A program made the position numbers and the translations under genes. The notes below the pieces were generated by a model. That model had not been told where the DNA came from and made no database searches. It saw nothing but the letters and a program-made list of their open reading frames with translations. From Psychrobacter sp. DM4 (GTDB taxonomy: Bacteria > Pseudomonadota > Gammaproteobacteria > Pseudomonadales > Moraxellaceae), in NCBI RefSeq assembly GCF_051307035.1, contig NZ_CP195536.1, positions 1,320,001 through 1,352,000 of the forward strand: a DNA stretch of 32,000 nt, in the 5' to 3' direction. Below, piece after piece: positions 18,581-32,000 of the stretch. Numbering within the stretch: the first letter of the stretch is position 1; each line of letters starts with the position of its first letter.

Positions 18581-19936
18581 TTATTTAGGAATGTACTGAC
18601 TCCATGGCTGTGCACGGATAGCTTCTGGTGTTTTGCTAATCACATCGAATTGGCCATCAGCGCGGATTTGACCGATCATGACAGGCTTCCATAAGTGGTG
18701 GTTTTCTTCATCCATTTTCAGGGTGTATCCTGATGGCGCATCAAAAGTCTGTCCGCCCATGCTAATACGTACTTTATCGACATCGGTCGTACCCGCTTTT
18801 TCAACCGCTTGTTTCCACATGTTAATACCGACATACGTGGCTTCCATAGGATCATTAGTCACGACCTTGTCGGCGTTGGGTAGCTTCTGATCTAGCGCAT
18901 ATTGCTTATATTTTTTAGTGAAGCTGCTGTTCACAGGGTTTTTAACCGACATAAAGTAGTTCCATGCCGCCAAATGACCCTGTAGTAAGCTGGTATCGAT
19001 ACCGCGTAGCTCTTCTTCACCTACTGAGAATGCCATGACTGGAATGTCAGAGGCTTTGATACCTTGGTTAGCAAGCTCACGATAAAAGGGCACGTTTGAA
19101 TCCCCATTAATGGTAGAGATAACCGCCGTCTTTTTACCGGTAGAGAAGTTTTTGATATCACCTACGATAGTCTGATAGTTGCTAAAGCCGAATGGCGTAT
19201 ATTCTTCCATGATGTCTGCTTCAGCGACGCCTTTAGACTTTAAAAAAGCTCTTAGAATTTGGTTGGTGGTACGAGGATAGACATAATCTGTGCCAAGTAA
19301 TACAAAACGCTCTGCACTACCGCCCTCTGGGCTCATCAAGTACTCAACGGCAGGAATGGCTTGCTGATTGGGTGCTGCGCCAGTATAAAAGATGTTTTCT
19401 GACTGCTCTTGACCTTCGTACTGTACCGGATAGAACATCAGGCCATTTAACTCTTCAACCACTGGCAATACTGACTTACGCGACACCGACGTCCAGCCGC
19501 CAAATATCACATCAACTTTATCTTGGGTTAATAGCTGACGTGCTTTTTCAGCGAATAATGGCCAGTCGGAGGCGGGATCAACCACAACAGGCTCTAGCTG
19601 CTTACCTAACACGCCGCCGTTAGCATTGATCTCGTTAATGGTCATGAGCGCCGTATCTTTTAGAGACGTCTCAGAGATGGCCATTGTGCCAGATAAAGAA
19701 TGCAAAATACCTACTTTGATTGTGTCGCCATCAGCCGCAGGGGTAGTAGTGGTCTCGGAGGTTTCAGCGGTAGAATTGGTTTCTGCGCCAGTTTCAGCAG
19801 GTTTTTGGCAACCGATTAGACTTAAGCTACCGACGATAGCTACTGCTAGTAGAGACAAACGTGAGGTTAGTTTTGAGTCGATACGAGAGCTCGAATTGAT
19901 TTTGGCAACAGGAATAAGAGTAGGCAATAATGACAT
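18581..19936 (-). CDS. urtA: Urea-binding periplasmic lipoprotein UrtA
   Basis: It is a LivK-type binding protein. It has a lipobox (LSLIGC) followed by a T/E/A-rich linker. I prefer the ATG at 19936, which has a GGAG ribosome-binding site at 19943-19946, over the track's TTG at 19948. Confidence 0.9.
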   Translation of the reverse strand: MSLLPTLIPVAKINSSSRIDSKLTSRLSLLAVAIVGSLSLIGCQKPAETGAETNSTAETSETTTTPAADGDTIKVGILHSLSGTMAISETSLKDTALMTINEINANGGVLGKQLEPVVVDPASDWPLFAEKARQLLTQDKVDVIFGGWTSVSRKSVLPVVEELNGLMFYPVQYEGQEQSENIFYTGAAPNQQAIPAVEYLMSPEGGSAERFVLLGTDYVYPRTTNQILRAFLKSKGVAEADIMEEYTPFGFSNYQTIVGDIKNFSTGKKTAVISTINGDSNVPFYRELANQGIKASDIPVMAFSVGEEELRGIDTSLLQGHLAAWNYFMSVKNPVNSSFTKKYKQYALDQKLPNADKVVTNDPMEATYVGINMWKQAVEKAGTTDVDKVRISMGGQTFDAPSGYTLKMDEENHHLWKPVMIGQIRADGQFDVISKTPEAIRAQPWSQYIPK

Positions 19937-20010
19937 ATAGTTCTCCAAAAAAGATAAAGTAGCAACCTAGTAGGTCGAGTTAATAAACCGACACTAACTG
20001 CTAGTGATGC

Positions 20011-20026
20011 TTCAATATTTATGCCA
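20011..20026 (-). promoter_or_regulatory. Candidate sigma-54 promoter for urtA (TGGCAT-N5-TTGAA on the minus strand)
   Basis: The reverse complement reads TGGCATAAATATTGAAG. The -24 GG is canonical, but the -12 element is GA rather than GC. It lies about 75 nt upstream of the urtA ATG and closely resembles the nirB candidate at 27064-27079. Confidence 0.45.
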
Positions 20027-20088
20027 ACCTAAAAATATAACCAGTTGCGCTAGAATCGTTAGTTATTTAGAAAAAGCCACCTTTTTTT

Positions 20089-20133
20089 TGCACCATTTTG
20101 GTTCTATGCTTTATTATGCACCATAATCGTCTG
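20089..20133. promoter_or_regulatory. Two TGCACCAT half-site elements (NtrC-like enhancer candidates) upstream of urtA
   Basis: TGCACCATTTTGGTTCT (20089-20105) matches the NtrC consensus TGCACC-N5-GGTGCA at 10 of 12 positions. TGCACCATAATCGTCTG (20117-20133) matches only the left half. Confidence 0.35.
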
Positions 20134-20432
20134 GTTTAGAGAGCTAAATCTGTGCATAGACAGTTATTCATTTGATGGATATAACGGCGCTAAAAGGGTT
20201 TTATAACCAGTTAAAGCTATTGAAAAGGGTATACGAATATAAAACCTTGTCTTTATATCGCTAACCTGTGAGTTTTTAGTATTGCTTAAAGATGTAATCT
20301 CTCAAGAACAAAGAGCTTAGTCGTATCCGTAGTACGACTCAATGTAGTACCCGCTCCGGTTTGGCGACATTCTAGCTTATTGGTAGCTACTATTGTAATG
20401 TCGTGGACTACTAAAAAGCTTCTCGTACGAAT

Positions 20433-20449
20433 AGCACCGCTTAGGTGCA
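20433..20449. promoter_or_regulatory. NtrC-like upstream activator site (AGCACC-GCTTA-GGTGCA)
   Basis: It matches the TGCACC-N5-GGTGCA dyad at 11 of 12 positions. It lies about 210 bp upstream of the sigma-54 candidate at 20655. Another TGCACC occurs at 20462. Confidence 0.5.
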
Positions 20450-20654
20450 CTGCTATAGCAATGCACCAACTGAGATCTTTTTAAACAGCGAATACTGCTT
20501 GAGAGAATATAATGAAACTTGGTATAACAAAATTATCCTTCAAAATCTTCTAGGTCATAAAATGTAAAGACGCCATAGTTAAAGAGTTGTAAGACAAAAT
20601 AGTTAGTTACGAAACCAGCTAACGACCATAACATTAGGCTTGTCTCGCAACCCT

Positions 20655-20670
20655 TGGCATACCTATTGCT
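20655..20670 (+). promoter_or_regulatory. Candidate sigma-54 promoter for the FNT gene (TGGCAT-ACCTA-TTGCT)
   Basis: GG-N10-GC spacing is canonical. It lies 43 nt upstream of the ATG at 20713. Confidence 0.65.
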
Positions 20671-20712
20671 TTAGCTATATTGTTATTTATCAATCAACAA
20701 TTGAGGTGTTTG

Positions 20713-21528
20713 ATGGCGTACATTGATCCAAGCGAATTCACGACGAAAATGGTAGATTCTGGTGAGTCTAAGATGAGTATGTCAACCAGCGATACCTTAA
20801 TCCGCGCCTTTATGGCAGGTGCAATATTAGCACTGGCGGCTTTTTTTGCGATTACAGTAACAGTGAATACAGGTAATCCGCTGTTAGGAGCACTATTGTT
20901 TCCAGTCGGATTTATCATGCTGTATCTAATGAAGTTTGATTTGCTGACAGGCGTATTTACACTTGTACCTTTAGCCTTATTAGATAAGCGTCCAGGCTGC
21001 GATATGAAGCAGTTATTGCGCAATTGGGGGCTTGTGTTTTTAGGCAATTTAGGCGGAGCCATAACCGTGGCTTTTCTAGCTTCTTTTATCTTAACCTTTG
21101 GTTATGAGACAGACGGTGGCACTATAGCGGCCAAAGTAGGCACTATTGGAGAGGCTCGTACACTAGGTTATCAGTCTCACGGAACTTCAGGCTGGTTTAC
21201 TATTTTTGTTCGCGGCATGTTATGTAATTGGATGGTTTCGATGGGCGTAGTAGGCGCTATGATTTCAACTTCAGCATCTGGTAAGATGTTTGCTATGTAC
21301 ATGCCAATCATGCTCTTCTTTTATATGGGTTTTGAGCACTCTATTGTTAATATGTTCCTATTCCCATTCTCAATGATTATGGGTGGTGATTTTACAATCG
21401 CAGATTATTTGATTTGGAATGAATTACCTACAGTACTAGGTAACCTAGTAGGGGGTCTGTTTTTTGTAGGTTTGCCGCTGTACTTTACTCATGTACGCAC
21501 TCGTCCAAGCCGCAAATTGGTTCAATGA
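20713..21528 (+). CDS. Formate/nitrite transporter (FNT) family channel, NirC/FocA-like; substrate unknown (nitrite or cyanate suggested by context)
   Basis: It shows six-TM FNT hallmarks (LCNWMVS, GFEHSIVNMF). I prefer the ATG at 20713, which has a GAGGTG ribosome-binding site at 20703-20708, over the track's TTG at 20680. Confidence 0.85.
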   Translation: MAYIDPSEFTTKMVDSGESKMSMSTSDTLIRAFMAGAILALAAFFAITVTVNTGNPLLGALLFPVGFIMLYLMKFDLLTGVFTLVPLALLDKRPGCDMKQLLRNWGLVFLGNLGGAITVAFLASFILTFGYETDGGTIAAKVGTIGEARTLGYQSHGTSGWFTIFVRGMLCNWMVSMGVVGAMISTSASGKMFAMYMPIMLFFYMGFEHSIVNMFLFPFSMIMGGDFTIADYLIWNELPTVLGNLVGGLFFVGLPLYFTHVRTRPSRKLVQ

Positions 21529-21551
21529 TGACATATGAGTTCTGCTATTAA

Positions 21552-21580
21552 TAGACCTCGCTTAGGCGAGGTTTATTATT
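21552..21580 (+). terminator. Hairpin plus T-rich tract between the FNT and PP2C-kinase genes (terminator or attenuator)
   Basis: ACCTCGC-TTAG-GCGAGGT forms a 7-bp GC-rich stem, extendable to about 10 bp, followed by TTATTATT. Confidence 0.55.
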
Positions 21581-21611
21581 GAGGGATCAAACTTAGCTTC
21601 TGGACATCACA

Positions 21612-23330
21612 ATGACACAGAAAAAACTTTCGGTGAGTATCAGTCAGCATTCACAAGCAGGAATAGGAAAACTGGTAAATCAGGACGCCCTTATCGCCTA
21701 TGTGCCTGATGATAGTCTGTTGCAATCTAAGGGCGCTGTATTTGCCGTTGCTGATGGTATCAGTACGAGTCAATTTGGTGCAAAAGCTAGTCAGATAGCA
21801 GTGAGTAGTTTTTTAAATGATTATTTAGATACACCAGAGACTTGGTCTACAAAGACATCAGGATTCAAAGTATTACTGTCAATAAATTCATGGTTGGTTG
21901 CACAAAGTCGACAAGGCGGGCACAGCTTTAATCAAAATAAAGGCTATGTGTGTGCATTTGCTACCCTTATTATCAAATCGCGCAGCATTCACATATTTCA
22001 CTCAGGTGATGTCCGTGTCGTTATGCTACATAAGGGTATTATCGATATTCTCACTCAAGATCATCGTCAAGTTTATGATAATGAACGTACTTATCTAAGT
22101 GCAGCACTAGGCTTAGATGATCATATCCGTCTGGATTATCTAAACGTTGAAGCCCAGTTGGACGCAACTTACCTTTTACTAAGCGATGGTGTTCATGAGC
22201 ATTTAAACAACGATGATATCATTCAGACATTAGAAAAATTACCAAGTGCTACCTGTGCTCAAAGACTTTGTGAATTGGCTACTATAAAGGGCTCTGTAGA
22301 TGATGCCAGTGCTTTAGTGATAAAAATTAATGATCTACTAGCAGAAGATAGAAGTGAGTTTTATAGGTATACCAAAGATCTTACTCCCATAATCTCGTTA
22401 GAAAAGGGAGCTGTAATTGATGGACTGAATGTTGTTAGACCACTCAGTAAAACGCCGCGCAGCCACACATACTTAGTCATAGATCAAAATGAAAATTTGT
22501 ACGTCTTAAAAACGCCTTCTGCTGAAAAAAGTCAAGATGACACTCATATTGAAAGTATGCTTATGGAGGAGTGGGTGGCAAGGCGTCTAAATAATACCCA
22601 TCTGATGACAGCGCCTAAGCTAAAAACACCACGTTCAAAACTATATACTCTAAGCCACTATGTTGAAGCTCAGAGCTTAGCTCAATGGATGGCAGAGCAT
22701 CCAAAACCGAGCCTTAATCAAGTACGATCTATCATTCAGCAAATTGCAACTGGATTACAAGTCATGCACCGCGCCGAGGTCATTCATCGTGATCTAAGAC
22801 CAGAAAATATCTTGATAGATGACAAAGGGACGGTCACAATTATTGATTTCGGTGAGGTTAGCATTGCAGGTTTAGATAAGGTTAATGCTGACAATATAAT
22901 ACCAGGTAGTTTACAGTATACAGCACCAGAGTATTTATTAGGTGCTGTAGGTACGGCAGGAAGTGATGTCTTTTCGCTGGGTATTTTAACTTATCAGATT
23001 CTAAGTGGTCAATTACCGTATGGCCTAAAGGTATCTAGTGCCTATAGCAAAAAGGCGCAAAATCAACTCAAAATTAGACCCTTGTTAGAGCTGGGCATAC
23101 GTATACCAGAGTGGTCTGTTTATGCTATAAATAAAGCATTAGATACTGATCCAAAACGTCGCTATAAAGAAGTTTCTGAATTTATTTATGAGCTCAATAG
23201 CCCAAGCTCAGATTTTAAACCTGAGCATAATACCGCATGGATCGATCGCGACCCAGTGCGATTCTGGCAAGGCGTAAGCACTGCCTTATTAGTAGTAGTG
23301 CTTAGCCTGATTTTAAGTGACTATTGGTAG
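21612..23330 (+). CDS. Bifunctional PP2C-type phosphatase / Ser-Thr protein kinase fusion with a C-terminal TM anchor (STK1)
   Basis: 572 aa.
- PPM motifs: NQD, VADGIS, SGDVRV, LLSDGV, DDAS (aa about 5-240).
- Kinase motifs: YVLK, HRDLRPEN (HRD at 22785-22793), DFG (22845-22853), TAPE, SDVFSLG.
- Terminal hydrophobic segment: ALLVVVLSLILS. Confidence 0.85.
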   Translation: MTQKKLSVSISQHSQAGIGKLVNQDALIAYVPDDSLLQSKGAVFAVADGISTSQFGAKASQIAVSSFLNDYLDTPETWSTKTSGFKVLLSINSWLVAQSRQGGHSFNQNKGYVCAFATLIIKSRSIHIFHSGDVRVVMLHKGIIDILTQDHRQVYDNERTYLSAALGLDDHIRLDYLNVEAQLDATYLLLSDGVHEHLNNDDIIQTLEKLPSATCAQRLCELATIKGSVDDASALVIKINDLLAEDRSEFYRYTKDLTPIISLEKGAVIDGLNVVRPLSKTPRSHTYLVIDQNENLYVLKTPSAEKSQDDTHIESMLMEEWVARRLNNTHLMTAPKLKTPRSKLYTLSHYVEAQSLAQWMAEHPKPSLNQVRSIIQQIATGLQVMHRAEVIHRDLRPENILIDDKGTVTIIDFGEVSIAGLDKVNADNIIPGSLQYTAPEYLLGAVGTAGSDVFSLGILTYQILSGQLPYGLKVSSAYSKKAQNQLKIRPLLELGIRIPEWSVYAINKALDTDPKRRYKEVSEFIYELNSPSSDFKPEHNTAWIDRDPVRFWQGVSTALLVVVLSLILSDYW

Positions 23331-23352
23331 CTCAATCATATAGCAGATCGAA

Positions 23353-23793
23353 TTACCACGTTTTGTAAGGTAAAAATTTACCATTAAGTACAATAACGAC
23401 TCTATCCCCATTGGGATTTTCTTCTTTATCTATATCAATAGAGAAGTCAATTGCACTCATGATACCATCCCCAAACTTTTCTTGAACCACCTCTTTGATG
23501 CTAGTGCCATAGATACCAACTGCCTCATACAGTCTATAGACAAGTGGATCTTGAGGAACATCACGTCCCCAACTTTTTGTTGGATATTCCATCAAAGTAG
23601 TCTTTGCTTGGTCTCCAAGCTCTAGCAACGAGCATAATTTACTAGCAGGTGCCTCAGGCATACTATTATTACCAAAACAAGCTGACGTCACCCAAACAAC
23701 GCCCATTTCTAGATGAGCGGCAATGTCTTCCCAGCTTAAAGACTTCTCTTTTTTAGCCAAAATGATTGCTTCTGTTAATTCTTCACGTGTCAT
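23353..23793 (-). CDS. cynS: Cyanase (cyanate hydratase/lyase) CynS
   Basis: 146 aa, canonical in length and sequence (…LVYRLYE…GDGIMSAIDF…DRVVIVLNGKFLPYKTW). Confidence 0.95.
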   Translation of the reverse strand: MTREELTEAIILAKKEKSLSWEDIAAHLEMGVVWVTSACFGNNSMPEAPASKLCSLLELGDQAKTTLMEYPTKSWGRDVPQDPLVYRLYEAVGIYGTSIKEVVQEKFGDGIMSAIDFSIDIDKEENPNGDRVVIVLNGKFLPYKTW

Positions 23794-23862
23794 ACTTAAT
23801 TACTCCAATAGTTTAAATTAAATGACGAAAAGTAGGCGTTTGCGATGTAACTGACAAGTTAA

Positions 23863-24219
23863 CTAGACTTTATGAGTACTAACCACCACCTTGCTGTTTT
23901 CAAGCCCTACTCGATAGATATCAAGTTTTACACTCTCATCATCCAAGCAGTGCCCAGTTGCCAAATTAAAGCGCTGTTTATAAATAGGTGAGGCGACGTA
24001 GAGCACCTCTTCAGTGCCGCCCGTATCATCTGCGATAGTGGTACCACCAATCAATCCACGAGAGAGTACATTGGCTTGACTAAAGGGATCGTAATTATCG
24101 AGGGCAAATAAGTCATCTTGCTTGGTGCGAAAGATAGCAATCTGCTTACCCTCTATGAGCGCGCAAACGCCCGTCTCAGGGAGAATGTCATTCAGTTGGC
24201 AAACGGTGTGCTGAATCAT
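23863..24219 (-). CDS. nirD: Assimilatory nitrite reductase small subunit NirD (Rieske-like fold)
   Basis: 118 aa, directly downstream of nirB, with the typical NirD pattern (VCALIEGKQIAIFR...SPIYKQRFNLATGHCLDD). Confidence 0.9.
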   Translation of the reverse strand: MIQHTVCQLNDILPETGVCALIEGKQIAIFRTKQDDLFALDNYDPFSQANVLSRGLIGGTTIADDTGGTEEVLYVASPIYKQRFNLATGHCLDDESVKLDIYRVGLENSKVVVSTHKV

Positions 24220-24317
24220 AGGGTTATCCTTTACGTGTAACGAGTAGCAAATAAAACTTCAAACACAGCTATCTATAAAAGGGGTTAGCGCTGTGTTTGA
24301 AAAAGGGAGTAGACTAT

Positions 24318-26900
24318 TTATGCCAACTCAGTCACTTGGATTTTGGCTTTTTCAGCGTCCGTCGCTGGGCGAATCTGATTGCGCTCGCTTACAAAGATGA
24401 CGTTATCATCGCCTTGCTCACTGTTCACAAAATGACGGAAGCGTTTGAGCTTTTCGCTATCAGTAATAGTGGCTTTCCACTCACAGACATAGTTATCGAC
24501 CAGTAGCTGCATTTGTGCCTCAAGCTCATCTGCGATACCTAAGCTGTCGTCAATAATGACCGCTTGTAGATACTCAAGTCCACCATCCAAGCTCTCGCGC
24601 CACTTTGAGGTGCGCTGTAGCTTATCGGCGGTTTTAATATAGAACATAATAATACGGTCGATATACTTGACCATCGTTTCAGTATCAAGGTCGGTTGCAA
24701 ACAGCTCGCCATGGCGCGGAGTAATGCCGCCGTTACCACCGACGAATAAGTTCCAGCCATTCTCGGTTGCGATCATGCCAAAGTCCTTACTCTGCGCCTC
24801 AGCACACTCGCGCATGCATCCTGATACGCCCATCTTGATCTTATGCGGTGAGCGTACGCCTTTGTAACGATCCTCTAATCTAATCGCCAGACCCATACTG
24901 TCATCCACCCCATATCGACACCAGTCATTACCCACACAAGACTTGACCGTGCGTAACGACTTACCGTAGGCATGACCCGTCTCAAAGCCTGCTTCTACCA
25001 GTTGTGTCCAGATATCAGGTAATTGCTCCATACGCGCACCGAACAGATCGACTCGCTGTCCGCCAGTGATCTTGGTGTATAGATTAAATTCTTTGGCGAC
25101 TTGTCCGAGTACGATGAGCTTATCGGCGGTAATCTCACCACCTGGTACACGGGGTACGACCGAATACGTGCCATCCTTTTGAATATTGCCTAGATAGTAA
25201 TCATTACTATCCTGTAGTGGGGTCAGCTCAGGTTTGAGTACATAATCATTCCAGCATGAGGACAAGATAGAGGCGACGGTCGGTTTGCAAATCTCACAGC
25301 CATGACCGCTACCGTGTTCAGTGAGTAGCTCATCAAAGGTTCTGATGCCGTGGACGCGAATCAAGCTATACAAGTCCTGACGCGAGTAGGCAAAATGCTC
25401 GCACAAGTCGTTATTGACTTCAAAGCCAAGGGTAGTCAGCTGATAGCTCAAGGTATCTTTGACCATGGGCGCACAACCACCGCAGCCCGTACCAGCACTA
25501 GTGACCGCTTTGACATCAGCAATGGAGTACGCACCGTTTTCGACCGCGGCGCAGATCGCGCCTTTGGTGACGTTATAACAAGAGCAAATCGTGGCGGTAT
25601 CTGGCAGATTATCAATGCCCATGACCGGCTTTTCGACATTAGGTAATATCAGACTTTCAGGATGCGCAGGCAAGTCAATATCATTGAGATACAGTTGTAA
25701 TAAGTTATTATAGTCTTCGGTATCACCGACCAATACCGCACCAAGCAGACGCTTATTATCAGGCGTGGTCACCAGCTTCTTGTAGATACCCTCTGCTGGA
25801 TTCTGGTACAGATAACTCAGTCCGCCCTCAGTAGTACCATGGGCATCACCGATACTGCCAACGTCTACGCCCATCAGTTTGAGCTTGGTACTCATATCAG
25901 CACCAGCAAATATTTGCTCACTATCACCCGCAATTTGTGCGGCGCAAATGCTCGCCATACTATAACCGGGCGCAACCAAACCAAATACCTTGTTGTCCCA
26001 TACCGCACATTCGCCAATGGCATAGACGTGCTCCGCGTTAGTGCGGCACTGCTCATCGATCAAAATCCCGCCACGGCTACCCATTTCGATACCGCATTCA
26101 GGATTGTCTTTGACAATGCCATCTTGCGGACGGATACCCGCACTAAAGAGAATTAAATCGGTATCAAGAGAGGTGCCATCAGCAAATTGCATGGTCAAAA
26201 AACAATCGTCATCGTCTGTGACGGTATGAGAGATAATTTCTTTGGTGTTTTTACCTGTCAAGACGGTAACGCCCAGTGCTTCGATTTTGCGTTTTAAGAT
26301 CTCGCCGCCTGCGGCATCAAGCTGAACGCCCATCAGTTGCGGCGCAAATTCGACCACATAAGTCTCAAGACCTAGAGTCACGAGCGCTTTTGCAGCCTCA
26401 AGTCCAAGCAAACCACCACCGACGACCACGCCCTTTTTGACTTTAGGTAATTCAGCTGTCGCTAAAATATCATCCAAATCAGCAATCGTACGATACACGT
26501 GACAATGCGGATGCTCGCGACCCGGAATCGGTGGCACAAAGGGGTAGGAGCCTGTCGCTAAAACCAGCTCGCTGTACTCAATCTGCTCGCCGTCCTCTGT
26601 GGTAATGGATTGAGTCGTCGAGTCGATATCTACAATGCGTTGATTAAGATGCAAGTTTACCTTTGATGATTCGTAAACGTTGAGATCGACAAGGTTGAGT
26701 TTGCTGGCATCCTTGTGCTCAAAATAGCTAGATAGATAAACGCGATCATAAGCAGGGCGATCCTCTTCAGCGAATACATGAATCTCAAATTGTTCATGTA
26801 GTCCTTGTTCAATGGCGCGCTCAACGAAATGATGACCGACCATACCGTTGCCGATGACGACTAGGTTACCTTTGCTACTTATATTCATTGTACTACTCAT
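24318..26900 (-). CDS. nirB: NAD(P)H-dependent assimilatory nitrite reductase large subunit NirB
   Basis: 860 aa. It has FAD- and NAD-binding GxGxxG motifs (VIGNGMVG, VVGGGLLGLEAA), BFD-like [2Fe-2S] cysteines (CSCYNV...GTGCGGC), and a sirohaem/[4Fe-4S] domain (SGCMRECAEA). Confidence 0.95.
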   Translation of the reverse strand: MSSTMNISSKGNLVVIGNGMVGHHFVERAIEQGLHEQFEIHVFAEEDRPAYDRVYLSSYFEHKDASKLNLVDLNVYESSKVNLHLNQRIVDIDSTTQSITTEDGEQIEYSELVLATGSYPFVPPIPGREHPHCHVYRTIADLDDILATAELPKVKKGVVVGGGLLGLEAAKALVTLGLETYVVEFAPQLMGVQLDAAGGEILKRKIEALGVTVLTGKNTKEIISHTVTDDDDCFLTMQFADGTSLDTDLILFSAGIRPQDGIVKDNPECGIEMGSRGGILIDEQCRTNAEHVYAIGECAVWDNKVFGLVAPGYSMASICAAQIAGDSEQIFAGADMSTKLKLMGVDVGSIGDAHGTTEGGLSYLYQNPAEGIYKKLVTTPDNKRLLGAVLVGDTEDYNNLLQLYLNDIDLPAHPESLILPNVEKPVMGIDNLPDTATICSCYNVTKGAICAAVENGAYSIADVKAVTSAGTGCGGCAPMVKDTLSYQLTTLGFEVNNDLCEHFAYSRQDLYSLIRVHGIRTFDELLTEHGSGHGCEICKPTVASILSSCWNDYVLKPELTPLQDSNDYYLGNIQKDGTYSVVPRVPGGEITADKLIVLGQVAKEFNLYTKITGGQRVDLFGARMEQLPDIWTQLVEAGFETGHAYGKSLRTVKSCVGNDWCRYGVDDSMGLAIRLEDRYKGVRSPHKIKMGVSGCMRECAEAQSKDFGMIATENGWNLFVGGNGGITPRHGELFATDLDTETMVKYIDRIIMFYIKTADKLQRTSKWRESLDGGLEYLQAVIIDDSLGIADELEAQMQLLVDNYVCEWKATITDSEKLKRFRHFVNSEQGDDNVIFVSERNQIRPATDAEKAKIQVTELA

Positions 26901-26929
26901 GCCTCTGTCCTTTTAGAAGGGGGGATTGA

Positions 26930-27043
26930 CTGAATGCTCTGTATAACCATGGGATTTGCTTACACTTAATAATGACCATGTTTAGCATGGCTCAATATGT
27001 TTTAGGAACTCTGATCGGTGATATCACGCAACAGAGCATTCAG
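26930..27043 (-). promoter_or_regulatory. 13-bp perfect long-range inverted repeat in the nirB 5' leader (possible RNA domain or paired protein sites)
   Basis: CTGAATGCTCTGT (26930-26942) is the exact reverse complement of ACAGAGCATTCAG (27031-27043). An internal CCATG-TTTAG-CATGG hairpin lies between them. The proximal arm ends about 30 nt from the nirB ATG. Confidence 0.4.
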
Positions 27044-27063
27044 ATACCTGCTGTTTATAAGAC

Positions 27064-27079
27064 TTCAATAATCGTGCCA
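27064..27079 (-). promoter_or_regulatory. Candidate sigma-54 promoter for nirBD-cynS (TGGCACG-ATTA-TTGAA on the minus strand)
   Basis: The reverse complement reads TGGCACGATTATTGAAG. The -24 region is a perfect TGGCACG, but the -12 element is GA rather than GC. It would give a leader of about 165 nt. Confidence 0.5.
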
Positions 27080-27237
27080 AGCACAACTATAGGCTGTCAT
27101 ATCTGTAGGGTTTTTGCTGACAGAAGTGGAGGGTTGCATCAGGGTCTATAAAGGTATGGGACACGCAGTAGCACGATTGATAAAGAGAGCTTAGCGTAGA
27201 GCAGCAGTCAAATATTTTATTTTTAATATAGCTTTAG

Positions 27238-27270
27238 TGCACCAAAATAGATGCATTACGCACCAAACTA
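27238..27270. promoter_or_regulatory. Direct repeats GCACCAAAATAG / GCACCAAACTAG, 21 bp apart (NtrC-like TGCACC half sites)
   Basis: TGCACCAAAATAGATGCA begins at 27238; it resembles the NtrC dyad but has N6 spacing. CGCACCAAACTAG begins at 27259. Both lie between the two divergent sigma-54 candidates. Confidence 0.35.
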
Positions 27271-27444
27271 GGGTTCAATGCAATTGTTAATGCACAGTAA
27301 ACGTACTAACAAAACCAGGCTATTATTAATCATTTTAAAATAGTATTGGCGCTTTGATTTCAGGGTTATCCCTTATAAAACAACGCGTAACCCTCAAATT
27401 AGCAGGCTAATTTTTACTTTTTCAGGAGTTTACACAAAGACAAC

Positions 27445-27460
27445 TGGCATAGCCATTGCA
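27445..27460 (+). promoter_or_regulatory. Candidate sigma-54 promoter for the nitrate transporter operon (TGGCAT-AGCCA-TTGCA)
   Basis: The -24/-12 spacing and core are canonical. It lies 94 nt upstream of the ATG at 27554. Confidence 0.7.
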
Positions 27461-27553
27461 CCGCTTCAATTATCTAAATCGATGAGTTCTTTAAACGTAA
27501 CTTGTTACCTTTATCAAAAAAATCCCAAAGTTAGTCCTTTAAGGAAGCTGTCT

Positions 27554-29062
27554 ATGTCGTCGCCAAACCCTGTTACTCCTACTAAAGATAAGTTAAATGT
27601 CCTATCGTTCGCGGGTAAAAATAAAATCCTTCACTTAGGTTGGATGGCATTTTTTCTTACCTTTTTTGTATGGTTTAACCATGCGCCGTTCTTATCAGCG
27701 ATTGGTGAGACGCTTAATCTGACCAAAGATCAGGTCAAAACCTTACTCATTCTCAACGTCGCCTTGACTATTCCTGCACGCGTCATCATCGGAATGCTTA
27801 CCGACCGTTTCGGTCCACGCATCGTTTATACAGCGATTTTATCGATTGGTGCGATTCCCTGTTTTACCTTTGCGTTCGCCCAAGATTACAACACCTTAGC
27901 TCTGTCTCGTTTCTTACTCGGCTTTGTGGGCGCAGGCTTCGTGGTAGGTATTCGCTTAATGAGCGATTGGTTCCCGCCCAATGAGTTGGGTACGGCTGAA
28001 GGAATCTATGGCGGCTGGGGTAACTTCGGTTCAGCTGCTGCGGCACTATTACTACCTACTGTCGCTATCATTGCAGCGGCTATATTCGGTGGTGATGAGG
28101 GCTGGCGTTATGCGACGGCGACGTCGGGTGTCGTAATGGCGCTTTATAGTATTATTTTTTATAGAATGGCACGCAATACTCCTAAAGGCGCGACTTACTT
28201 TAAGCCTAAAAAGTCGGGCGCGATGATGGTGACCTCATCGGGCGACTTTTGGCTGATGATGGTCTTTAAACTACCGATGTACTTAGCTTTAGCATTATTG
28301 GCGTGGAAATTGTCACCTTCAGGTGTCAGTTTGCTTAGCCAATCGAGTGTTACGATGGTCTACATTGGCCTAGCGGTCTTGTATGTCTATGAGTTCATTA
28401 GTAGCTACCGCTTCAATAAAGAGGTGTTTACCACGCCTGTCCCTGAAGCGCATCGTTATGACTTTAAGCAAGTCGGTATCTTAAATATTCTATACTTTGC
28501 GACTTTTGGCTCAGAGCTTGCGGTTGTCTCTATGCTGCCTTTGTTTTATCAAGAGACCTTTAGTTTATCGATTGTCATGGCAGGTGTATTGGCATCAAGT
28601 TATGCCTTTATGAATCTGATGTCACGACCTGGTGGCGGTTGGCTCAGTGATAAATTCGGTCGCAAGATTACCCTGTTGATTTTAACGGCGGGTCTAGCCG
28701 TCGGTTATCTATTGATGGGCTTTCTTGATTCAACATGGCCACTGGCGCTAGCATTATTAATCACTATGTTTTGCTCGTTTTTTGTACAAGCAGGCGAAGG
28801 TGCCGTCTTTGCTGTCATTCCCCTGATTAAGCGCAGTATGACAGGGCAGTTTGCAGGTATGACCGGTGCATATGGTAACGTCGGCTCAGTCGTCTATCTC
28901 ACGGTGCTCAGCCTTGTCTCTTATCAAGTATTTTTCTTTGTCATTGCCGCAACCGCAGTCATTGGATTCTTCGCCTTATTTTTACTTAAAGAGCCAGAAG
29001 GTACTATCTTAGAAGAGATGCCAGATGGCAGCTTTGCTGAGATTCAAGTGAGTCATAAATAG
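27554..29062 (+). CDS. MFS nitrate/nitrite porter (NNP family; NarK/NasA/NrtP-like)
   Basis: It has 12-TM MFS architecture with two NNP-type Gly/Asn motifs (GGWGNFGSAAA, GAYGNVGSVVY). I prefer the ATG at 27554, which has an AAGGAAG ribosome-binding site at 27541-27547, over the track's start at 27482. Confidence 0.85.
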   Translation: MSSPNPVTPTKDKLNVLSFAGKNKILHLGWMAFFLTFFVWFNHAPFLSAIGETLNLTKDQVKTLLILNVALTIPARVIIGMLTDRFGPRIVYTAILSIGAIPCFTFAFAQDYNTLALSRFLLGFVGAGFVVGIRLMSDWFPPNELGTAEGIYGGWGNFGSAAAALLLPTVAIIAAAIFGGDEGWRYATATSGVVMALYSIIFYRMARNTPKGATYFKPKKSGAMMVTSSGDFWLMMVFKLPMYLALALLAWKLSPSGVSLLSQSSVTMVYIGLAVLYVYEFISSYRFNKEVFTTPVPEAHRYDFKQVGILNILYFATFGSELAVVSMLPLFYQETFSLSIVMAGVLASSYAFMNLMSRPGGGWLSDKFGRKITLLILTAGLAVGYLLMGFLDSTWPLALALLITMFCSFFVQAGEGAVFAVIPLIKRSMTGQFAGMTGAYGNVGSVVYLTVLSLVSYQVFFFVIAATAVIGFFALFLLKEPEGTILEEMPDGSFAEIQVSHK

Positions 29063-29093
29063 CACTAAAAAACCAAAAAAGAACCAAATAAGG

Positions 29094-31292
29094 ATGACTT
29101 TGAATACTACTCAAAGAACCAGTCAAAATGCCGACGAACAAGGCGCTCGTAATAATCAGCCAGATGGTTGCGCTGTGAGTGCTCAAGTAAGCACTGAATC
29201 TGGTGGTCAGTCATCCTTACTTTCATCACCAAAATTTTCATCACCAAAATCAAGTCATTTTGAGGCAGATCATGCCTTGTGGTGGCTTGACTTTTTTACC
29301 ATGAAAGGCCGTAAATCTGAAAACCAAGATAGTCTTTTGATAACCACTTGTTTGCCGTATCATTTTTTAGATAAAACATCAGATAGCACGAACGATTCAA
29401 ACCTTTTTGATGAGATAACAACCCCTCCTGCGCCTTTGCTAGTACTCATGGCAGATGGGGTGAGCGCTTGTCAGTTTCCAAAGCAGGCCAGTCAACTGGT
29501 GATCAACACCGTCGCTGACAAGCTCACGTTAGCCTTGTCAAAATTAGCTAAAATACAGTGCGAGGCGCAAAAGTACTCTGACGACAACAAACAGACCCAA
29601 AGCAACAACAAGGATCACCGTTATCAAGCCTCAACAATGAGTTTTGATGACGATCAAATCGCTAGTCTCATCAAGATCGCGGTCAATAAGGCTAATGATA
29701 CCCTGTGCATCCCGCAAGCCTATCAGCGCGTACCGCCTTTGTTATCCACATTGTCAGGCTTATTATGTATTGGCGATCGTATTCATCTGTTTCATACGGG
29801 TGATTCACGTATTTATCGTATCGGGATAGACAGTCTGACCGTACTGAGTGAAGATCATCGTATCCATCGCGGTCAGGACAAAGGAGCGCTCTCAGCAGCG
29901 ATTGGGGCGGATACGCAACTGGATCTGCAACAGTCGATATTTACACTACATCAAGACGAATCCTTAGCCATCATGACTGATGGCGTGTATGAGCATATCG
30001 ACGCCACAGAGTTACAGTTCGAGCTGTGCTCGGCAGCGACCAATATGTTTGAATCGGTCGCTGCCGAGCACAAGTTACCTACTGGGTTCAACGCCAGTCA
30101 GACAATCTGCGAGCACGCCTTTGCTGAGGGTAGTCATGATAATTTGAGCATGATAATGCTTAGTATGGATGCAACACCATGCCAATCTGGTCAAGCAAGC
30201 GCTTTGAATAGCTCAGATCAAAGTAGTAGCGATAGCGATATGCCCCGTTATAAGCTACCGACAGGCTTAGAAGTCGGCGATAGTATCGACGGATTCACAG
30301 TAATGACTATCATTGCGCGCACCGCTCGCAGTGATGTGTATTTGGTACAAGATGAGCATAAAAACGACTATGTCTTGAAATCCCCGAGTCTCGATACTAT
30401 CGATGATGGTCACTATTTGCGTGATTTTTTGAAGGAGCGCAAGATTGGCCTTAGCCTCTCAAAACATCGACGCGCAGGCGAGTCCGCTTTTAATCAAGCT
30501 GATCCTAATCGGTTGCACATGACTACTCTAAATGGTAGTAGCATCCAAAGCCAAAGTATAAGTTCTGGATTTAGTGCGTCAGGACTGCTGCGTTACTATC
30601 CTGTACCTGCCAGCACCACCTATCTGTATCACTTAACGGAATACATTGAGGGCGAGAGCCTACGGGACTTTATTGAACGCAATGCGCCGTGTGATGTCTG
30701 GCAGACTTATGATCTACTGACCAAGATCGGCATGGCGGTGCGGGTGATGCATCGCAACTATCTGTTGCACCAAGACATCAAGCCTGAAAACGTGCTTTTA
30801 ACTCAAGCAGGCGCGGTCAAGCTAATCGACTTTGGTTCGGCAAGCTCCTCCATTCTAAAAGACAGTACGCGCCCGCCTAATGGCGACTTGCATTACGCTG
30901 CACCAGAGTATTACACCGATGCACCAAAAGGCGTGCATTCGGATCTTTTTTCAATAGCGGTAATCGGCTATGAGCTACTGACAGGACAGCTGCCGTTTGG
31001 CACGCAAGATCTCATGAATCCGCAGCACGCTCTAGTGATGCCTGCCCAGCCGCTACGCCAAAACAACATACCCGCTATCAGTCAGCAGGCACTTATGCGG
31101 GCGCTACATTCTAATACTAATGCACGCTATCAAGCCATCGGTGAGTTCTTACAGGATTTTAACCCTGATAATAGGGCAAACAGTCGTGACCCTGAACCGC
31201 TTATTCAGCGCAACCCTTTACTGGTATGGCATAGCATTTGCTTTATACAGTTTGTCATCATCATTTTATTGCTGTGGGTTTATCTGGCATAA
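29094..31292 (+). CDS. Bifunctional PP2C-type phosphatase / Ser-Thr protein kinase fusion with a C-terminal TM anchor (STK2)
   Basis: 732 aa. It starts 31 nt after the transporter stop and has an AAGGA ribosome-binding site.
- PPM motifs: NQDS, MADGVS, TGDSRIY, IMTDGV, SHDNLS.
- Kinase motifs: YVLK, HQDIKPEN (30768-30776), DFG (30828-30836), AAPE, SDLFSIAVIG.
- Terminal TM segment: FIQFVIIILLLWVYLA. Confidence 0.85.
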   Translation: MTLNTTQRTSQNADEQGARNNQPDGCAVSAQVSTESGGQSSLLSSPKFSSPKSSHFEADHALWWLDFFTMKGRKSENQDSLLITTCLPYHFLDKTSDSTNDSNLFDEITTPPAPLLVLMADGVSACQFPKQASQLVINTVADKLTLALSKLAKIQCEAQKYSDDNKQTQSNNKDHRYQASTMSFDDDQIASLIKIAVNKANDTLCIPQAYQRVPPLLSTLSGLLCIGDRIHLFHTGDSRIYRIGIDSLTVLSEDHRIHRGQDKGALSAAIGADTQLDLQQSIFTLHQDESLAIMTDGVYEHIDATELQFELCSAATNMFESVAAEHKLPTGFNASQTICEHAFAEGSHDNLSMIMLSMDATPCQSGQASALNSSDQSSSDSDMPRYKLPTGLEVGDSIDGFTVMTIIARTARSDVYLVQDEHKNDYVLKSPSLDTIDDGHYLRDFLKERKIGLSLSKHRRAGESAFNQADPNRLHMTTLNGSSIQSQSISSGFSASGLLRYYPVPASTTYLYHLTEYIEGESLRDFIERNAPCDVWQTYDLLTKIGMAVRVMHRNYLLHQDIKPENVLLTQAGAVKLIDFGSASSSILKDSTRPPNGDLHYAAPEYYTDAPKGVHSDLFSIAVIGYELLTGQLPFGTQDLMNPQHALVMPAQPLRQNNIPAISQQALMRALHSNTNARYQAIGEFLQDFNPDNRANSRDPEPLIQRNPLLVWHSICFIQFVIIILLLWVYLA

Positions 31293-31373
31293 GTGCTTAT
31301 GCGCCAAGCATACATTATCAATGACAGATCATCATTTATTTCACGCTGCACCACGCGGCTAAGGATACGCTCT

Positions 31374-32000
31374 ATGTCGCTTTATAAGTCATCACCTACC
31401 ACTCAATCCGATAGTCATAATATAGACGTTACTGAAAATGCGGGCATCATCATCATCGGTGCTGGTATGGCAGGCAGCCGTTTTGCTATTGAGCTGGCAA
31501 GGGCGCAGCAGCTAAATGATGCTGACGTCCATCCGCCAATTACCTTGATTAGCAAAGAGAGCCACGTGGGCTACAACCGCATTATGTTATCGCCTGTGCT
31601 GGCAGGAGATACCGCGTTTGATGATACTTACCTGTATGACCAATCAGACTATGAGCAGTTGGGCATTAGGGTGCTGGCTGGGGTCAGCGTGGATACGATG
31701 GATACCAATCAGCAGTGTATTGAGCTTGATAACGGGCAGACGCTACACTATACCAAAGTAGTGATCGCTACAGGATCAACCGCTCGCGTGATACCGTTTC
31801 CCAATCATAAGGCTAAAGGGGTACATGTCTTTCGAGATTCTATGGATGTCAGCACACTGACTGAATACGCCCGTCAAGGCAAAACGGGACTCGTGATTGG
31901 CGGCGGGGTATTGGGACTGGAGGCGGCGTGTGCTCTAGCAGGACAAGGGGCGAGCATGACGGTCATTCATGTGGATGCTTACGTACTCAACACCCAGCTG
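31374..32000 (+). CDS. FAD/NAD(P)H-dependent pyridine-nucleotide-disulfide oxidoreductase, NirB-N-terminal-like; probably the electron-transfer subunit of assimilatory nitrate reductase. The 3' end lies outside the window
   Basis: This gene is not in the ORF track because no stop is reached. The ATG at 31374 has an AAGGA ribosome-binding site at 31361-31365, and 209 codons are open to the window edge. It has IIGAGMAG (FAD) and VIGGGVLGLEAA (NAD) motifs parallel to those of nirB. Confidence 0.8.
   Translation, partial: MSLYKSSPTTQSDSHNIDVTENAGIIIIGAGMAGSRFAIELARAQQLNDADVHPPITLISKESHVGYNRIMLSPVLAGDTAFDDTYLYDQSDYEQLGIRVLAGVSVDTMDTNQQCIELDNGQTLHYTKVVIATGSTARVIPFPNHKAKGVHVFRDSMDVSTLTEYARQGKTGLVIGGGVLGLEAACALAGQGASMTVIHVDAYVLNTQL

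Follow-up and report, generated by a model that had tools for sequence, protein, structure and literature searches.

By taking up nitrate, nitrite and cyanate, heterotrophic and chemolithotrophic bacteria shape nitrogen cycling in the sea and in soil, and the known bacterial control of this uptake is, to our knowledge, almost wholly transcriptional (NtrBC, NasST, NasR). In the 32,000-nucleotide stretch of Psychrobacter sp. DM4 DNA analysed here (the window), the gene for an FNT-family anion channel is followed by that for STK1, a 572 amino acid PP2C phosphatase/Hanks-type Ser/Thr kinase with a C-terminal membrane anchor. This arrangement raises the question of whether the two genes form a functional unit and, if so, what STK1 acts upon. 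The elements described in an earlier sequence-only reading of this DNA were all found where it had placed them or close by, each above chance.

The FNT gene (20713–21528, forward strand; 271 amino acids) matches Pfam PF01226 over profile positions 2–240 of 240 (E 3.8e-65; 220.1 bits against a cut-off of 34.6). A channel gene had thus been correctly recognised, but its 5′ end is revised. The listed open reading frame (20680–21528) opens with a TTG at 20680, which was rejected because the predicted transcription start falls on it and because the homologues begin at the ATG at 20713, where all 150 have MAY or MSY as their N-terminus. This ATG, with a GAGG Shine-Dalgarno sequence 6 nt upstream, is almost certainly the true start. 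The best solved relative of the channel is LCIA from Chlamydomonas (E 3e-26), with FocA and NirC behind. In the FocA and LCIA alignments the pore threonine (DLLTG, aligned to ELFTS/ELFTG) and the central histidine (GFEHSIVNMF, aligned to GFEHCIANMF in FocA and GLEHSVANMF in LCIA) are present; we take these to be FocA T91 and H209. Scores fall below the cut-offs of the NCBIfam equivalogs for FocA (TIGR04060, 132 bits against 290.1; NF008069, 68.9 against 440) and NirC (NF008595, 51.2 against 293) and of the subfamily model TIGR00790 (145 against 232). By sequence, the channel most resembles the NAR1/LCIA type, and it is an orthologue of neither FocA nor NirC. Its gene neighbourhood, the sole basis for a substrate assignment, points to nitrite and/or cyanate as probable and to bicarbonate as possible. 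FNT genes beside cynS in nitrifiers have been proposed to encode low-affinity cyanate/nitrite transporters, cyanate transport by FNT proteins being still unproven (PMC10753782). The reports on NAR1/LCIA, on the nitrite FNT of marine picocyanobacteria and on the nitrifier FNT-cynS pairs make no mention of an adjacent kinase/phosphatase, whereas the window FNT has one.

STK1 is encoded at 21612–23330 (forward strand) and its homologues carry the database name 'bifunctional protein-serine/threonine kinase/phosphatase'. The PP2C domain (approximately residues 14–240; 21651–22331, forward strand) matches the PP2C_2 profile over residues 21–210 (E 9e-14; 51.9 bits against a cut-off of 24), and the kinase domain (approximately residues 268–530; 22413–23201, forward strand) the Pkinase profile over residues 286–518 (E 6e-35; 121.3 bits against 31.7). 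Invariant among 106 sequences are D25, D48, G49, D133, D192, G193 and D230 of the phosphatase and K300, E319, H392, D394, N399, D412, G414 and A438-P439-E440 of the kinase, which account for the catalytic Lys, the alphaC Glu, the H-x-D loop with its Asn, and the DFG and APE motifs. The metal-binding Asp and Gly residues of PP2C motifs 1, 2, 8 and 11 are present, motif 2 reading DGIS and not DGxGG. The glycine-rich ATP loop, GxGxxG, is absent from STK1 and its aligned homologues, which have (S/T)xRSH(V/T)Y in its place; there R283 and S284 never vary and H285 hardly ever does. In Foldseek comparisons of the AlphaFold model (mean pLDDT 89.4; pTM 0.87) the PP2C domain resembles tPphA, PstP and PppA (target-normalised TM-scores 0.80–0.84) and the kinase domain PknA and PknB (0.82–0.85), while no PDB entry spans both domains (query-normalised TM-score at most 0.41). 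Sequence and model together predict that both catalytic domains are competent, the kinase without a glycine-rich loop. No dedicated NCBIfam model exists for the fusion; the only matches are to generic kinase and PP2C models, none of which reaches its cut-off.

A hydrophobic helix at residues 548–571 of 572 (23253–23324, forward strand) is the single membrane segment in the model, the remainder forming two globular domains. Every homologue keeps this segment hydrophobic, P548 and W552 being invariant, and STK1 is predicted to be a tail-anchored membrane protein. The tail-anchored PP2C/kinase fusion that had been described downstream of the channel gene is thus borne out by both profiles and by the modelled helix. 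Because the helix is C-terminal, both catalytic domains would be cytoplasmic and there would be no external sensor domain. The same two folds (TM-scores 0.80–0.85) are found in PknB-PstP of Mycobacterium, PpkA-PppA of Pseudomonas aeruginosa, StkP-PhpP and PrkC-PrpC, in which the kinase is, as here, genetically coupled to the opposing phosphatase. Those systems, however, consist of two proteins, whereas in STK1 one chain runs from PP2C through kinase to the terminal anchor; their kinases also usually have an extracellular sensor (PASTA etc.) after a mid-chain membrane helix, unlike STK1.

The occurrence of a transporter-kinase pairing twice in the locus had been taken to argue that the pairing is functional and not accidental, and comparative genomics strongly supports that view. 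In a kinase-seeded sample of 80 genomes with an STK1 relative, one per species and spanning the Gamma-, Beta- and Alphaproteobacteria and the Campylobacterota, an FNT gene is upstream of the kinase gene in 77, directly and on the same strand in 68 and as FNT-cynS-kinase in nine; two of the three remaining loci end at a contig boundary. Conversely, the kinase gene is downstream of FNT in 61 of the 68 usable FNT-seeded metagenomic loci. The pairing is therefore conserved elsewhere, and a lack of conserved synteny is decisively rejected: the total is about 140 bacterial loci in four classes. Of all the loci compared, approximately 90% keep the FNT→kinase order on the same strand; the gap between the two genes has a median of 65 nt and is of 3–7 nt in four loci. 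Kinase identity across the paired loci is as low as about 40% and the flanking contexts differ, while the window FNT is 63–84% identical to kinase-linked FNTs from the four classes. The genes 3′ of FNT in seven loci without an adjacent kinase are unrelated (e.g. encoding an MCP, an Oxidored_FMN protein or a Gly_transporter protein). Since cynS, nirBD and NNP genes are all missing from the surrounding 4–5 kb in 68 of 160 comparative loci (36/80 and 32/80), the conserved core is FNT plus kinase, and stand-alone pairs are found in Sessilibacter and Endozoicomonas. No FNT-kinase fusion (Rosetta-stone) protein was found among the 150 best 50%-cluster representatives, where the long matches were chimeras with unrelated domains or had no second domain; this negative result carries little weight.

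The second pairing, 6 kb from the first (27445–31292, forward strand), consists of a sigma-54-like site identified by its match to the promoter consensus (27445–27460), a gene for an NNP/NarK nitrate/nitrite MFS transporter identified by profile (27482 or 27555 to 29062), a spacer of 31 nt that contains no hairpin, and STK2 (29094–31292), identified by profile and by its similarity to STK1. The two kinases had been called paralogues, which their similarity supports (27% identity; E 8e-53), but STK1 is not a recent duplicate of STK2. In a neighbour-joining tree, constructed without bootstrap and with only six NNP-linked sequences, all of the FNT- or cynS-linked kinases form one clade, and STK2 groups outside it with the NNP-linked kinases of other genomes. 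On this sequence evidence STK1 belongs to a separate, FNT-dedicated clade. Both modules are present in six loci, the window included. A search with STK2 gave no cross-genus context, the named organisms among its best 120 matches all being Psychrobacter. PA1782 of P. aeruginosa, which presumably adjoins the nitrate transporter gene nasA (PA1783), and the 'pknD' genes beside nasA, nrtP and nirB are the NNP-linked counterpart within the STK1 family. Among the genes whose position near nirB, nasA and nrtP is conserved, one for a Ser/Thr kinase has been listed (2026 preprint, 10.64898/2026.09.23.753953), and PA1782 is described as a predicted kinase only (PMC11197903). In the literature searched, no description of the function or target of PA1782 or of its FNT-linked sister clade was found, and the family is mentioned only in passing, with no functional study.

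Upstream of the channel gene, a sigma-54 (−24/−12) promoter candidate, TGGCATACCTATTGCT (20655–20670, forward strand), has one mismatch to TGGCAC-N5-TTGCW and the GG-N10-GC spacing, and places the transcription start at about 20680. This site had been proposed from the window alone and is supported by the related loci, 67 of 149 having a sense match within 250 nt of the FNT start compared with 0 of 149 in antisense; the matches peak 40–80 nt 5′ of the FNT ATG. The candidate promoter is, by this comparison, conserved. A palindrome resembling an NtrC-type enhancer, AGCACCGCTTAGGTGCA (20433–20449, forward strand), is approximately 220 nt upstream of the sigma-54 site, with a second, weaker NtrC-like site at 20089–20105. 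Compared with TGCACC-N5-GGTGCA, these sites are the window's two closest matches (one and two mismatches), and both are in the urtA-FNT intergenic region. As the motif is not enriched across the window (9 matches against 11.8 expected), an NtrC-type enhancer is suggestive only.

The 83-nt spacer between the FNT gene and STK1 (21529–21611) contains the hairpin that had been reported there (21549–21578, forward strand), with the sequence UAAUAGACCUCGC-UUAG-GCGAGGUUUAUUA: a 13-bp stem with a 7-bp G+C-rich core, a UUAG loop and a U-rich 3′ side (fold z-score −3.64; none of 200 shuffles folds equally well). Strong hairpins are present in 64 of 66 FNT-kinase spacers (median dG −21.7 compared with −10.2 for shuffles), with pairing preserved in relatives by wobble or pair-restoring changes, and where a cyanase gene is inserted the hairpin comes after the FNT gene. 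On this comparison, the presence of a hairpin at the 3′ end of the FNT gene is conserved. It is not a dispersed REP-like repeat, as it occurs once in the window, and an Rfam scan of 19000–32000 at E up to 1 gave a spurious Xist match only and no known leader or riboswitch. A U-rich tail is found in only 27 of the 64 equivalent hairpins, so many of these are not canonical terminators, and a simple terminator scan of the window did not list the one at 21549–21578, which has an interrupted tail. Terminator-like in form, the structure probably either attenuates the transcript or stabilises it.

Were the hairpin instead a complete terminator, the two genes would be separate units and STK1 would have a promoter independent of nitrogen status. 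The G+C-rich core and the 3′ tail, UUUAUUAUU, of the window hairpin fit this explanation, as do the poor Shine-Dalgarno sequence of STK1 and a weak sigma-70-like match (9 of 12) at 21552–21579. That match, however, overlaps the hairpin, and such sites are at chance in the window (14 against 11.4 expected), which does not favour the suggestion that STK1 has its own promoter. In 44 of the 64 loci, moreover, the kinase gene begins no more than 20 nt after the hairpin, so that a separate promoter would not fit between them, and the gaps of 3–7 nt and the prevailing same-strand order also oppose separate units. We regard complete termination as unlikely; the conserved arrangement fits the earlier suggestion of readthrough into STK1, and co-transcription of the two genes is inferred. 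From sequence, a conserved nitrogen-regulated two-gene module would be the best explanation for the pair.

In the mechanism that we propose, nitrogen limitation would cause the NtrC/sigma-54 promoter to transcribe the NAR1/LCIA-type channel, whose likely substrate, nitrite and/or cyanate, would feed NirBD and cyanase. The hairpin would end or protect most transcripts while a minority read through into STK1, giving much channel and little STK1. The C-terminal anchor would keep STK1 at the inner membrane face where, with phosphatase and kinase in one chain, it would exert push-pull control by phosphorylating and dephosphorylating cytoplasmic Ser/Thr residues of the co-encoded channel. Candidate targets are T11, S24, T25 and T28 at the N-terminus, S185-T186-S187 in the TM4-TM5 loop and T259 and T263 at the C-terminus. 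Anion flux through the channel might thereby be switched on and off within seconds by nitrogen status. We give slightly better than even weight to this overall reading, of a nitrogen-regulated FNT-STK1 module in which the tethered enzyme reversibly phosphorylates the channel and gates nitrite/cyanate flux; the channel as phospho-target, the signal sensed and the substrate are its inferred parts. The sister kinase group, represented here by STK2, would apply the same logic to NNP nitrate transporters. More tentatively, and with somewhat less than even confidence, we suggest that single-chain tethered kinase/phosphatases are an old family of the Proteobacteria and Campylobacterota that split into transporter-dedicated lineages gating FNT or NNP proteins by reversible phosphorylation of the cytoplasmic face.

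In the channel, the cytoplasmic N-terminus and the TM4-5 loop match the membrane core in degree of conservation, with Ser/Thr residues kept in at least 90% of sequences. The same residues are kept in the FNTs of the seven kinase-free loci, compared with which none was found that is unique to kinase-linked FNTs, and they are therefore not specific to kinase-linked channels. This is compatible with STK1 acting on a soluble nitrogen protein or regulator (cyanase, NirBD, PII/GlnK or a NasT-type antiterminator), its adjacency to FNT reflecting only co-expression under nitrogen limitation. One of the structures nearest to the PP2C domain is tPphA, the PII phosphatase of cyanobacteria, and many pairs are adjoined by cynS or nirBD. 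By contrast, approximately 40–45% of pairs have none of these genes nearby, the two kinase groups follow two unrelated transporter families and not a common enzyme, and the tail anchor keeps STK1 at the membrane; a soluble target appears improbable. At position 97 of the channel, where T (140), D (6), N (4) and S (2) occur, the window FNT has D; a phosphomimetic role for T97D was considered but is not supported, the pattern being that of a helix N-cap with no covariation with the kinase HRD/HQD motif.

A further explanation is that the channel is a transceptor, in which nitrite/cyanate occupancy or flux sets the kinase/phosphatase balance of STK1 and STK1 signals to other targets. STK1 itself lacks a sensor domain, the FNT (63–84% identity) is far more conserved than the kinase (about 40%), as expected of a multiply constrained surface, and the synteny fits equally well. 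The conserved core, however, encodes no downstream target, and we consider signalling of this kind distinctly unlikely, noting that it is compatible with phosphorylation of the channel and that the present data do not separate the two. Accidental adjacency, or mere shared ancestry of close relatives, has in its favour only the general expectation that genes can lie side by side without interacting, and is virtually untenable given two-way pairing in four classes with varied flanks and divergent kinases.

Gating of an FNT channel from the inside has a precedent in E. coli FocA, which is gated by pyruvate formate-lyase, a cytoplasmic partner at its N-terminal region. That control is by protein binding and not by phosphorylation, and the window FNT is no FocA orthologue (132 against 290 bits). 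No description of phospho-regulation in the FNT family was found in the literature searched. In plants, the known switch sites include Ser501 of NRT2.1, with CEPH, a PP2C-family enzyme, and T101 of NRT1.1, with CIPK23. For NRT2.1 the switch works through phosphorylation and CEPH, and for AMT1;1 it is CIPK23 that brings about inactivation (PMC9978367). Plant Ser/Thr kinases and phosphatases are described as switching nitrate and ammonium transporters on and off rapidly, at the post-translational level, in line with nitrogen status (PMC9978367; PMC7348705). The partner of STK2 belongs to the NNP family, which includes NRT2. The plant kinases and phosphatases are separate soluble proteins encoded elsewhere, whereas STK1 is one tail-anchored chain encoded beside its transporter; a shared mechanism is suggested by analogy.

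If the proposed mechanism is correct, a dedicated kinase/phosphatase beside the transporter would provide a fast post-translational layer of control in many species, a bacterial counterpart of the plant CIPK23/CEPH switches and the missing mechanism by which ammonium rapidly shuts off nitrate/nitrite uptake in heterotrophic bacteria. The channel would be the first phospho-regulated FNT, and a function would be given to a widespread, unstudied family of bacterial Ser/Thr kinases that includes PA1782. The hairpin would be a clean example of a structural, and not sequence-level, element setting the expression ratio of a gene pair. The module is small and sharply defined and is present in culturable Psychrobacter, Stutzerimonas stutzeri, Vibrio, Bordetella and Methylobacterium, so the hypothesis is directly testable.

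Convergent with STK1 is the cyanase gene cynS (23353–23793, reverse strand; Cyanate_lyase, E 3e-35). Cyanase is the commonest additional neighbour of the FNT-kinase pair, cynS being within 4–5 kb in 27 of 80 and 33 of 80 loci. The GC3 values of cynS (0.31), STK1 (0.31) and FNT (0.39) are low compared with those of the neighbouring genes (0.42–0.50), and the FNT-STK1-cynS cassette may for this reason have been acquired horizontally.

The window is overall a nitrogen-scavenging locus, as judged from the ORF listing and profile searches. The urease genes (about 7.3-13.8 kb) and urtEDCBA, which encode a urea ABC transporter (13.8-19.9 kb), are on the minus strand and are separated by a divergent intergenic region of 760 nt from the plus-strand pair formed by the FNT anion channel gene (20713-21528) and STK1 (21612-23330), the gene for a PP2C phosphatase/kinase fusion. 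These are followed on the minus strand by cynS (cyanase; 23353-23793) and nirD and nirB (23863-26900), and then by an NNP/NarK-type MFS transporter gene (27482-29062) and STK2 (29094-31292), which encodes a second PP2C/kinase fusion. The gene arrangement is alike in Psychrobacter sp. Choline-02u-9 (locus L008 of the genome scan), where STK1 is 96% identical. The FNT gene, the STK1 fusion, the hairpin in the spacer and the sigma-54 candidate described in the sequence-only reading were all found by profile, fold and motif checks. In the urease large-subunit ORF (10256-12385, minus strand; 709 residues) a UreB-like sequence (GEYKIKAG), noticed by eye, precedes the UreC part, and from the sequence the urease beta and alpha subunits appear to be fused in one gene.

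The FNT ORF is listed from TTG 20680, the spot where a sigma-54 transcript would begin. GAGG lies 6 nt before ATG 20713 and every homologue starts with MAY or MSY there; the TTG was rejected on the predicted transcript start and the homologue N-termini, and the protein thus has 271 residues. The start of the NNP transporter is probably ATG 27555 (MSSPNPV), which has AAGGAAG upstream, rather than ATG 27482, which is just ~10 nt past the predicted sigma-54 transcription start.

One genome per species was scanned with an aligned set of STK1 relatives, giving a kinase-seeded set of 80 loci, and the window proteins were compared with all ORFs of these loci. The set includes Gammaproteobacteria (Stutzerimonas, Pseudomonas, Vibrio, Colwellia, Moritella, Methylophaga, Methylomonas, Halomonas, Alloalcanivorax, Teredinibacter and others), Betaproteobacteria (Bordetella, Noviherbaspirillum, Hydrogenophaga, Gallionellales and Rhodocyclaceae), Alphaproteobacteria (Microvirga, Methylobacterium and Hyphomicrobiales) and Campylobacterota (Sulfurimonas and Sulfurovum). 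A same-strand FNT gene is immediately upstream of the kinase gene in 68/80 loci and the order is FNT-cynS-kinase in 9/80; two of the remaining three are cut by contig ends and only in L066 do 5 kb of upstream DNA hold no FNT gene. Five more contexts, obtained by exact protein look-up, match the pairing. A metagenome scan with the FNT protein gave a channel-seeded set of 80 loci (75-100% identity), 68 of them with sufficient downstream DNA; the kinase gene is next in 52, cynS and then the kinase gene follow in 9, and neither is present in 7. Conserved FNT-kinase synteny, whose absence would have refuted the sequence-only reading, is thus found in both directions (77/80 kinase-seeded and 61/68 channel-seeded loci). 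Across classes the FNT proteins share 63-84% identity, the kinases only about 40%. The seven kinase-less loci (L138, L151, L108, L157 and L164-L166) are metagenomic, and their FNT proteins, 75-79% identical, belong to the same subfamily; in L138 (4001-7758) the order is FNT, cynS and a gene for a methyl-accepting chemotaxis protein. These loci are natural controls for the behaviour of the channel without its kinase.

STK1 comprises a PP2C_2 domain (residues 21-210), a Pkinase domain (residues 286-518) and a hydrophobic C-terminus. Across 106 aligned family members, the PP2C metal-binding residues (D25, D48, G49, D133, D192, G193 and D230) and the kinase catalytic residues (K300, E319, H392, D394, N399, D412, G414 and the APE motif at 438-440) are invariant. 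The GxGxxG loop is absent from the kinase family in this alignment; its place is taken by an invariant R283 and S284 and a nearly invariant H285. The motif is HQD in most members and HRD in the Psychrobacter subclade; the lack of a glycine-rich loop together with the mostly non-RD (HQD) motif is a hint that nucleotide binding or activation may be unusual. The AlphaFold model of STK1 has two domains and a final helix at 548-571 (pLDDT 89.4, pTM 0.87). In Foldseek searches the kinase groups with PknA/PknB and the phosphatase with tPphA, PstP and PppA, and no solved structure spanning both domains was found. The terminal anchor and the absence of an external domain would place both active sites at the inner membrane face, so that any signal would have to be cytoplasmic or be passed on by a membrane partner.

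The closest solved relative of the FNT protein is Chlamydomonas LCIA/NAR1.2 (E 3e-26), with weaker matches to FocA (4e-19), PfFNT, the hydrosulfide channel and NirC (2e-8). The protein covers the whole Pfam profile PF01226 (E 3.8e-65), falls below the NCBIfam cut-offs for FocA and NirC, and has pore Thr and His residues that align with those of the solved relatives. The cynS and nirBD neighbourhood suggests that the substrate is nitrite and/or cyanate; published genome analyses guess likewise where an FNT gene neighbours cynS, and they emphasize the lack of proof (PMC10753782). The cytoplasmic N-terminus has the consensus M-S-Y-L-x-P-S-E-F-V-T-K-M-V-D-A-G-E-S-K-I-Y-M-S-T-K-D-T, and its conservation, like that of the TM4-TM5 loop (S-T-S), equals that of the membrane core, with Ser/Thr at positions in both regions in at least 90% of 152 FNT sequences. 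These conserved Ser/Thr are candidate phospho-acceptors; they are also kept in the seven FNT proteins without an adjacent kinase gene.

In the model that best accounts for the synteny seen in both directions, the transporter-specific kinase lineages, the tether to the membrane and the two intact, opposing activities, STK1 would determine how far its own channel is phosphorylated and thereby gate nitrite/cyanate flux. Plant NRT2.1 and AMT1;1 are controlled likewise, by their phosphorylation state (PMC9978367). The channel could also be a sensor that controls the kinase, which is compatible with gating by STK1. Alternatively, the target of the kinase/phosphatase could be a soluble enzyme or a regulator. 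Cyanase and nitrite reductase genes, both present in the window, are common companions of the pair: within 4-5 kb, cynS is found in 27/80 kinase-seeded and 33/80 channel-seeded loci, and nirB in 16/80 and 13/80. None of cynS, nirBD and NNP is found within this distance in 36/80 and 32/80 loci, respectively, and the invariant core is therefore FNT plus kinase; adjacency of these two genes by chance is excluded.

The FNT-STK1 spacer is 83 nt long and contains a 13-bp hairpin (21549-21578; z -3.64, with 0/200 shuffles as good). A hairpin of -10 kcal/mol or better is present in 64/66 FNT-kinase spacers of 30-300 nt (median -21.6, against -10.2 for shuffled spacers), and -15 or better is reached by 93% of real and 20% of shuffled spacers. 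As the spacer sequences differ, conservation is at the level of structure. In loci with an inserted cynS, the strong hairpin lies 3' of the FNT gene in 15/18 and is not consistently found before the kinase gene, which assigns it to the channel gene's 3' end. The distance from hairpin end to kinase start has a median of 15.5 nt and is at most 20 nt in 44/64 loci; this excludes a separate promoter downstream of the hairpin, and the hairpin may mask the ribosome-binding site of the kinase gene. Only 27/64 hairpins have a U-rich tail. The window hairpin is terminator-like, with a 7-bp G+C core and the tail UUUAUUAUU, and ends 33 nt before the STK1 start codon, which has a weak Shine-Dalgarno sequence. 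Through partial termination, 3'-end protection and/or translational masking, the hairpin would provide much channel and little regulator.

A candidate sigma-54 site (TGGCATACCTATTGCT, 20655-20670) with correct GG-N10-GC spacing precedes the FNT gene. Among related loci, 67/149 have a -24/-12 element in the sense orientation in the 250 nt preceding the FNT start and 0/149 have one in the antisense orientation, and these elements cluster 40-80 nt before the ATG; in many of the loci without one, the FNT gene sits after nirBD or cynS. The window has four further sigma-54-like sites, three of them intergenic and correctly oriented. They are at 20011-20026 (minus strand, facing urtA), 27064-27079 (minus strand, facing nirB), 27445-27460 (plus strand, facing the NNP gene) and 31227-31242 (plus strand, inside STK2 at its 3' end, preceding a gene for a NasB-like FAD/NAD oxidoreductase that starts at ~31.4 kb). 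The locus as a whole looks like a single NtrC/RpoN regulon. The two best NtrC-box matches of the window are both in the urtA-FNT intergenic region. A 7-bp inverted repeat (AGTCGTA-N7-TACGACT, 20319-20339) lies in the middle of the same region.

GC3 is 0.39 for the FNT gene and 0.31 for both STK1 and cynS, compared with 0.42-0.50 for the neighbouring genes and 0.45-0.50 for the flanking urt, nirBD, NNP and STK2 genes. Close relatives of STK1 are few and those of STK2 are common in Psychrobacter; in an 86% relative, the FNT-STK1 pair has another setting, after a nitrate reductase gene and cobA. The FNT-STK1-cynS cassette (20713-23793) was probably acquired horizontally as a unit. STK1-type proteins are named 'bifunctional protein-serine/threonine kinase/phosphatase' in databases, PA1782 of P. 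aeruginosa figures as a predicted kinase in PMC11197903, and a kinase gene is conserved beside nirB, nasA and nrtP (2026 preprint, 10.64898/2026.09.23.753953). Full-text searches brought up no functional study of the kinase family, and neither the clade of FNT-linked kinases nor the conserved hairpin was described in what they returned. The component parts are of known kinds; the arrangement, in which one tail-anchored chain combines kinase and phosphatase and is dedicated to an anion channel encoded with it, appears to be undescribed.

FNT-kinase and NNP-kinase pairs also occur together in L023 (Methylophaga), L025 (Teredinibacter), L049, L056 and L167; in L055 an NNP gene lies 3' of the FNT-kinase pair and the contig ends too soon to show a second kinase gene. 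In a neighbour-joining tree, built without bootstrap and with few NNP-linked members, all FNT- or cynS-linked kinases including STK1 form one clade, and the six NNP-linked kinases including STK2 fall outside it. STK1 and STK2 are paralogues, as first proposed, with 27% identity (E 8e-53), whereas STK1 and the Stutzerimonas FNT-linked kinase share 41-43%. The split in the tree and the greater similarity to the Stutzerimonas protein reject local duplication as the source of the repeated module, and the recurrence of the transporter-kinase logic in the window thus goes back to two old lineages that were each inherited together with a transporter family of their own. The NNP-STK2 spacer, in contrast to that of FNT-STK1, is 31 nt long, A-rich and without a hairpin. 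Compared with STK1, STK2 (732 residues) is extended at the N-terminus by a long Ser/Gln-rich stretch and carries large inserts in both domains. Among its best 120 database relatives listed, all those that are named are from Psychrobacter, and in one source the identical protein begins about 70 residues later, giving 663 residues.
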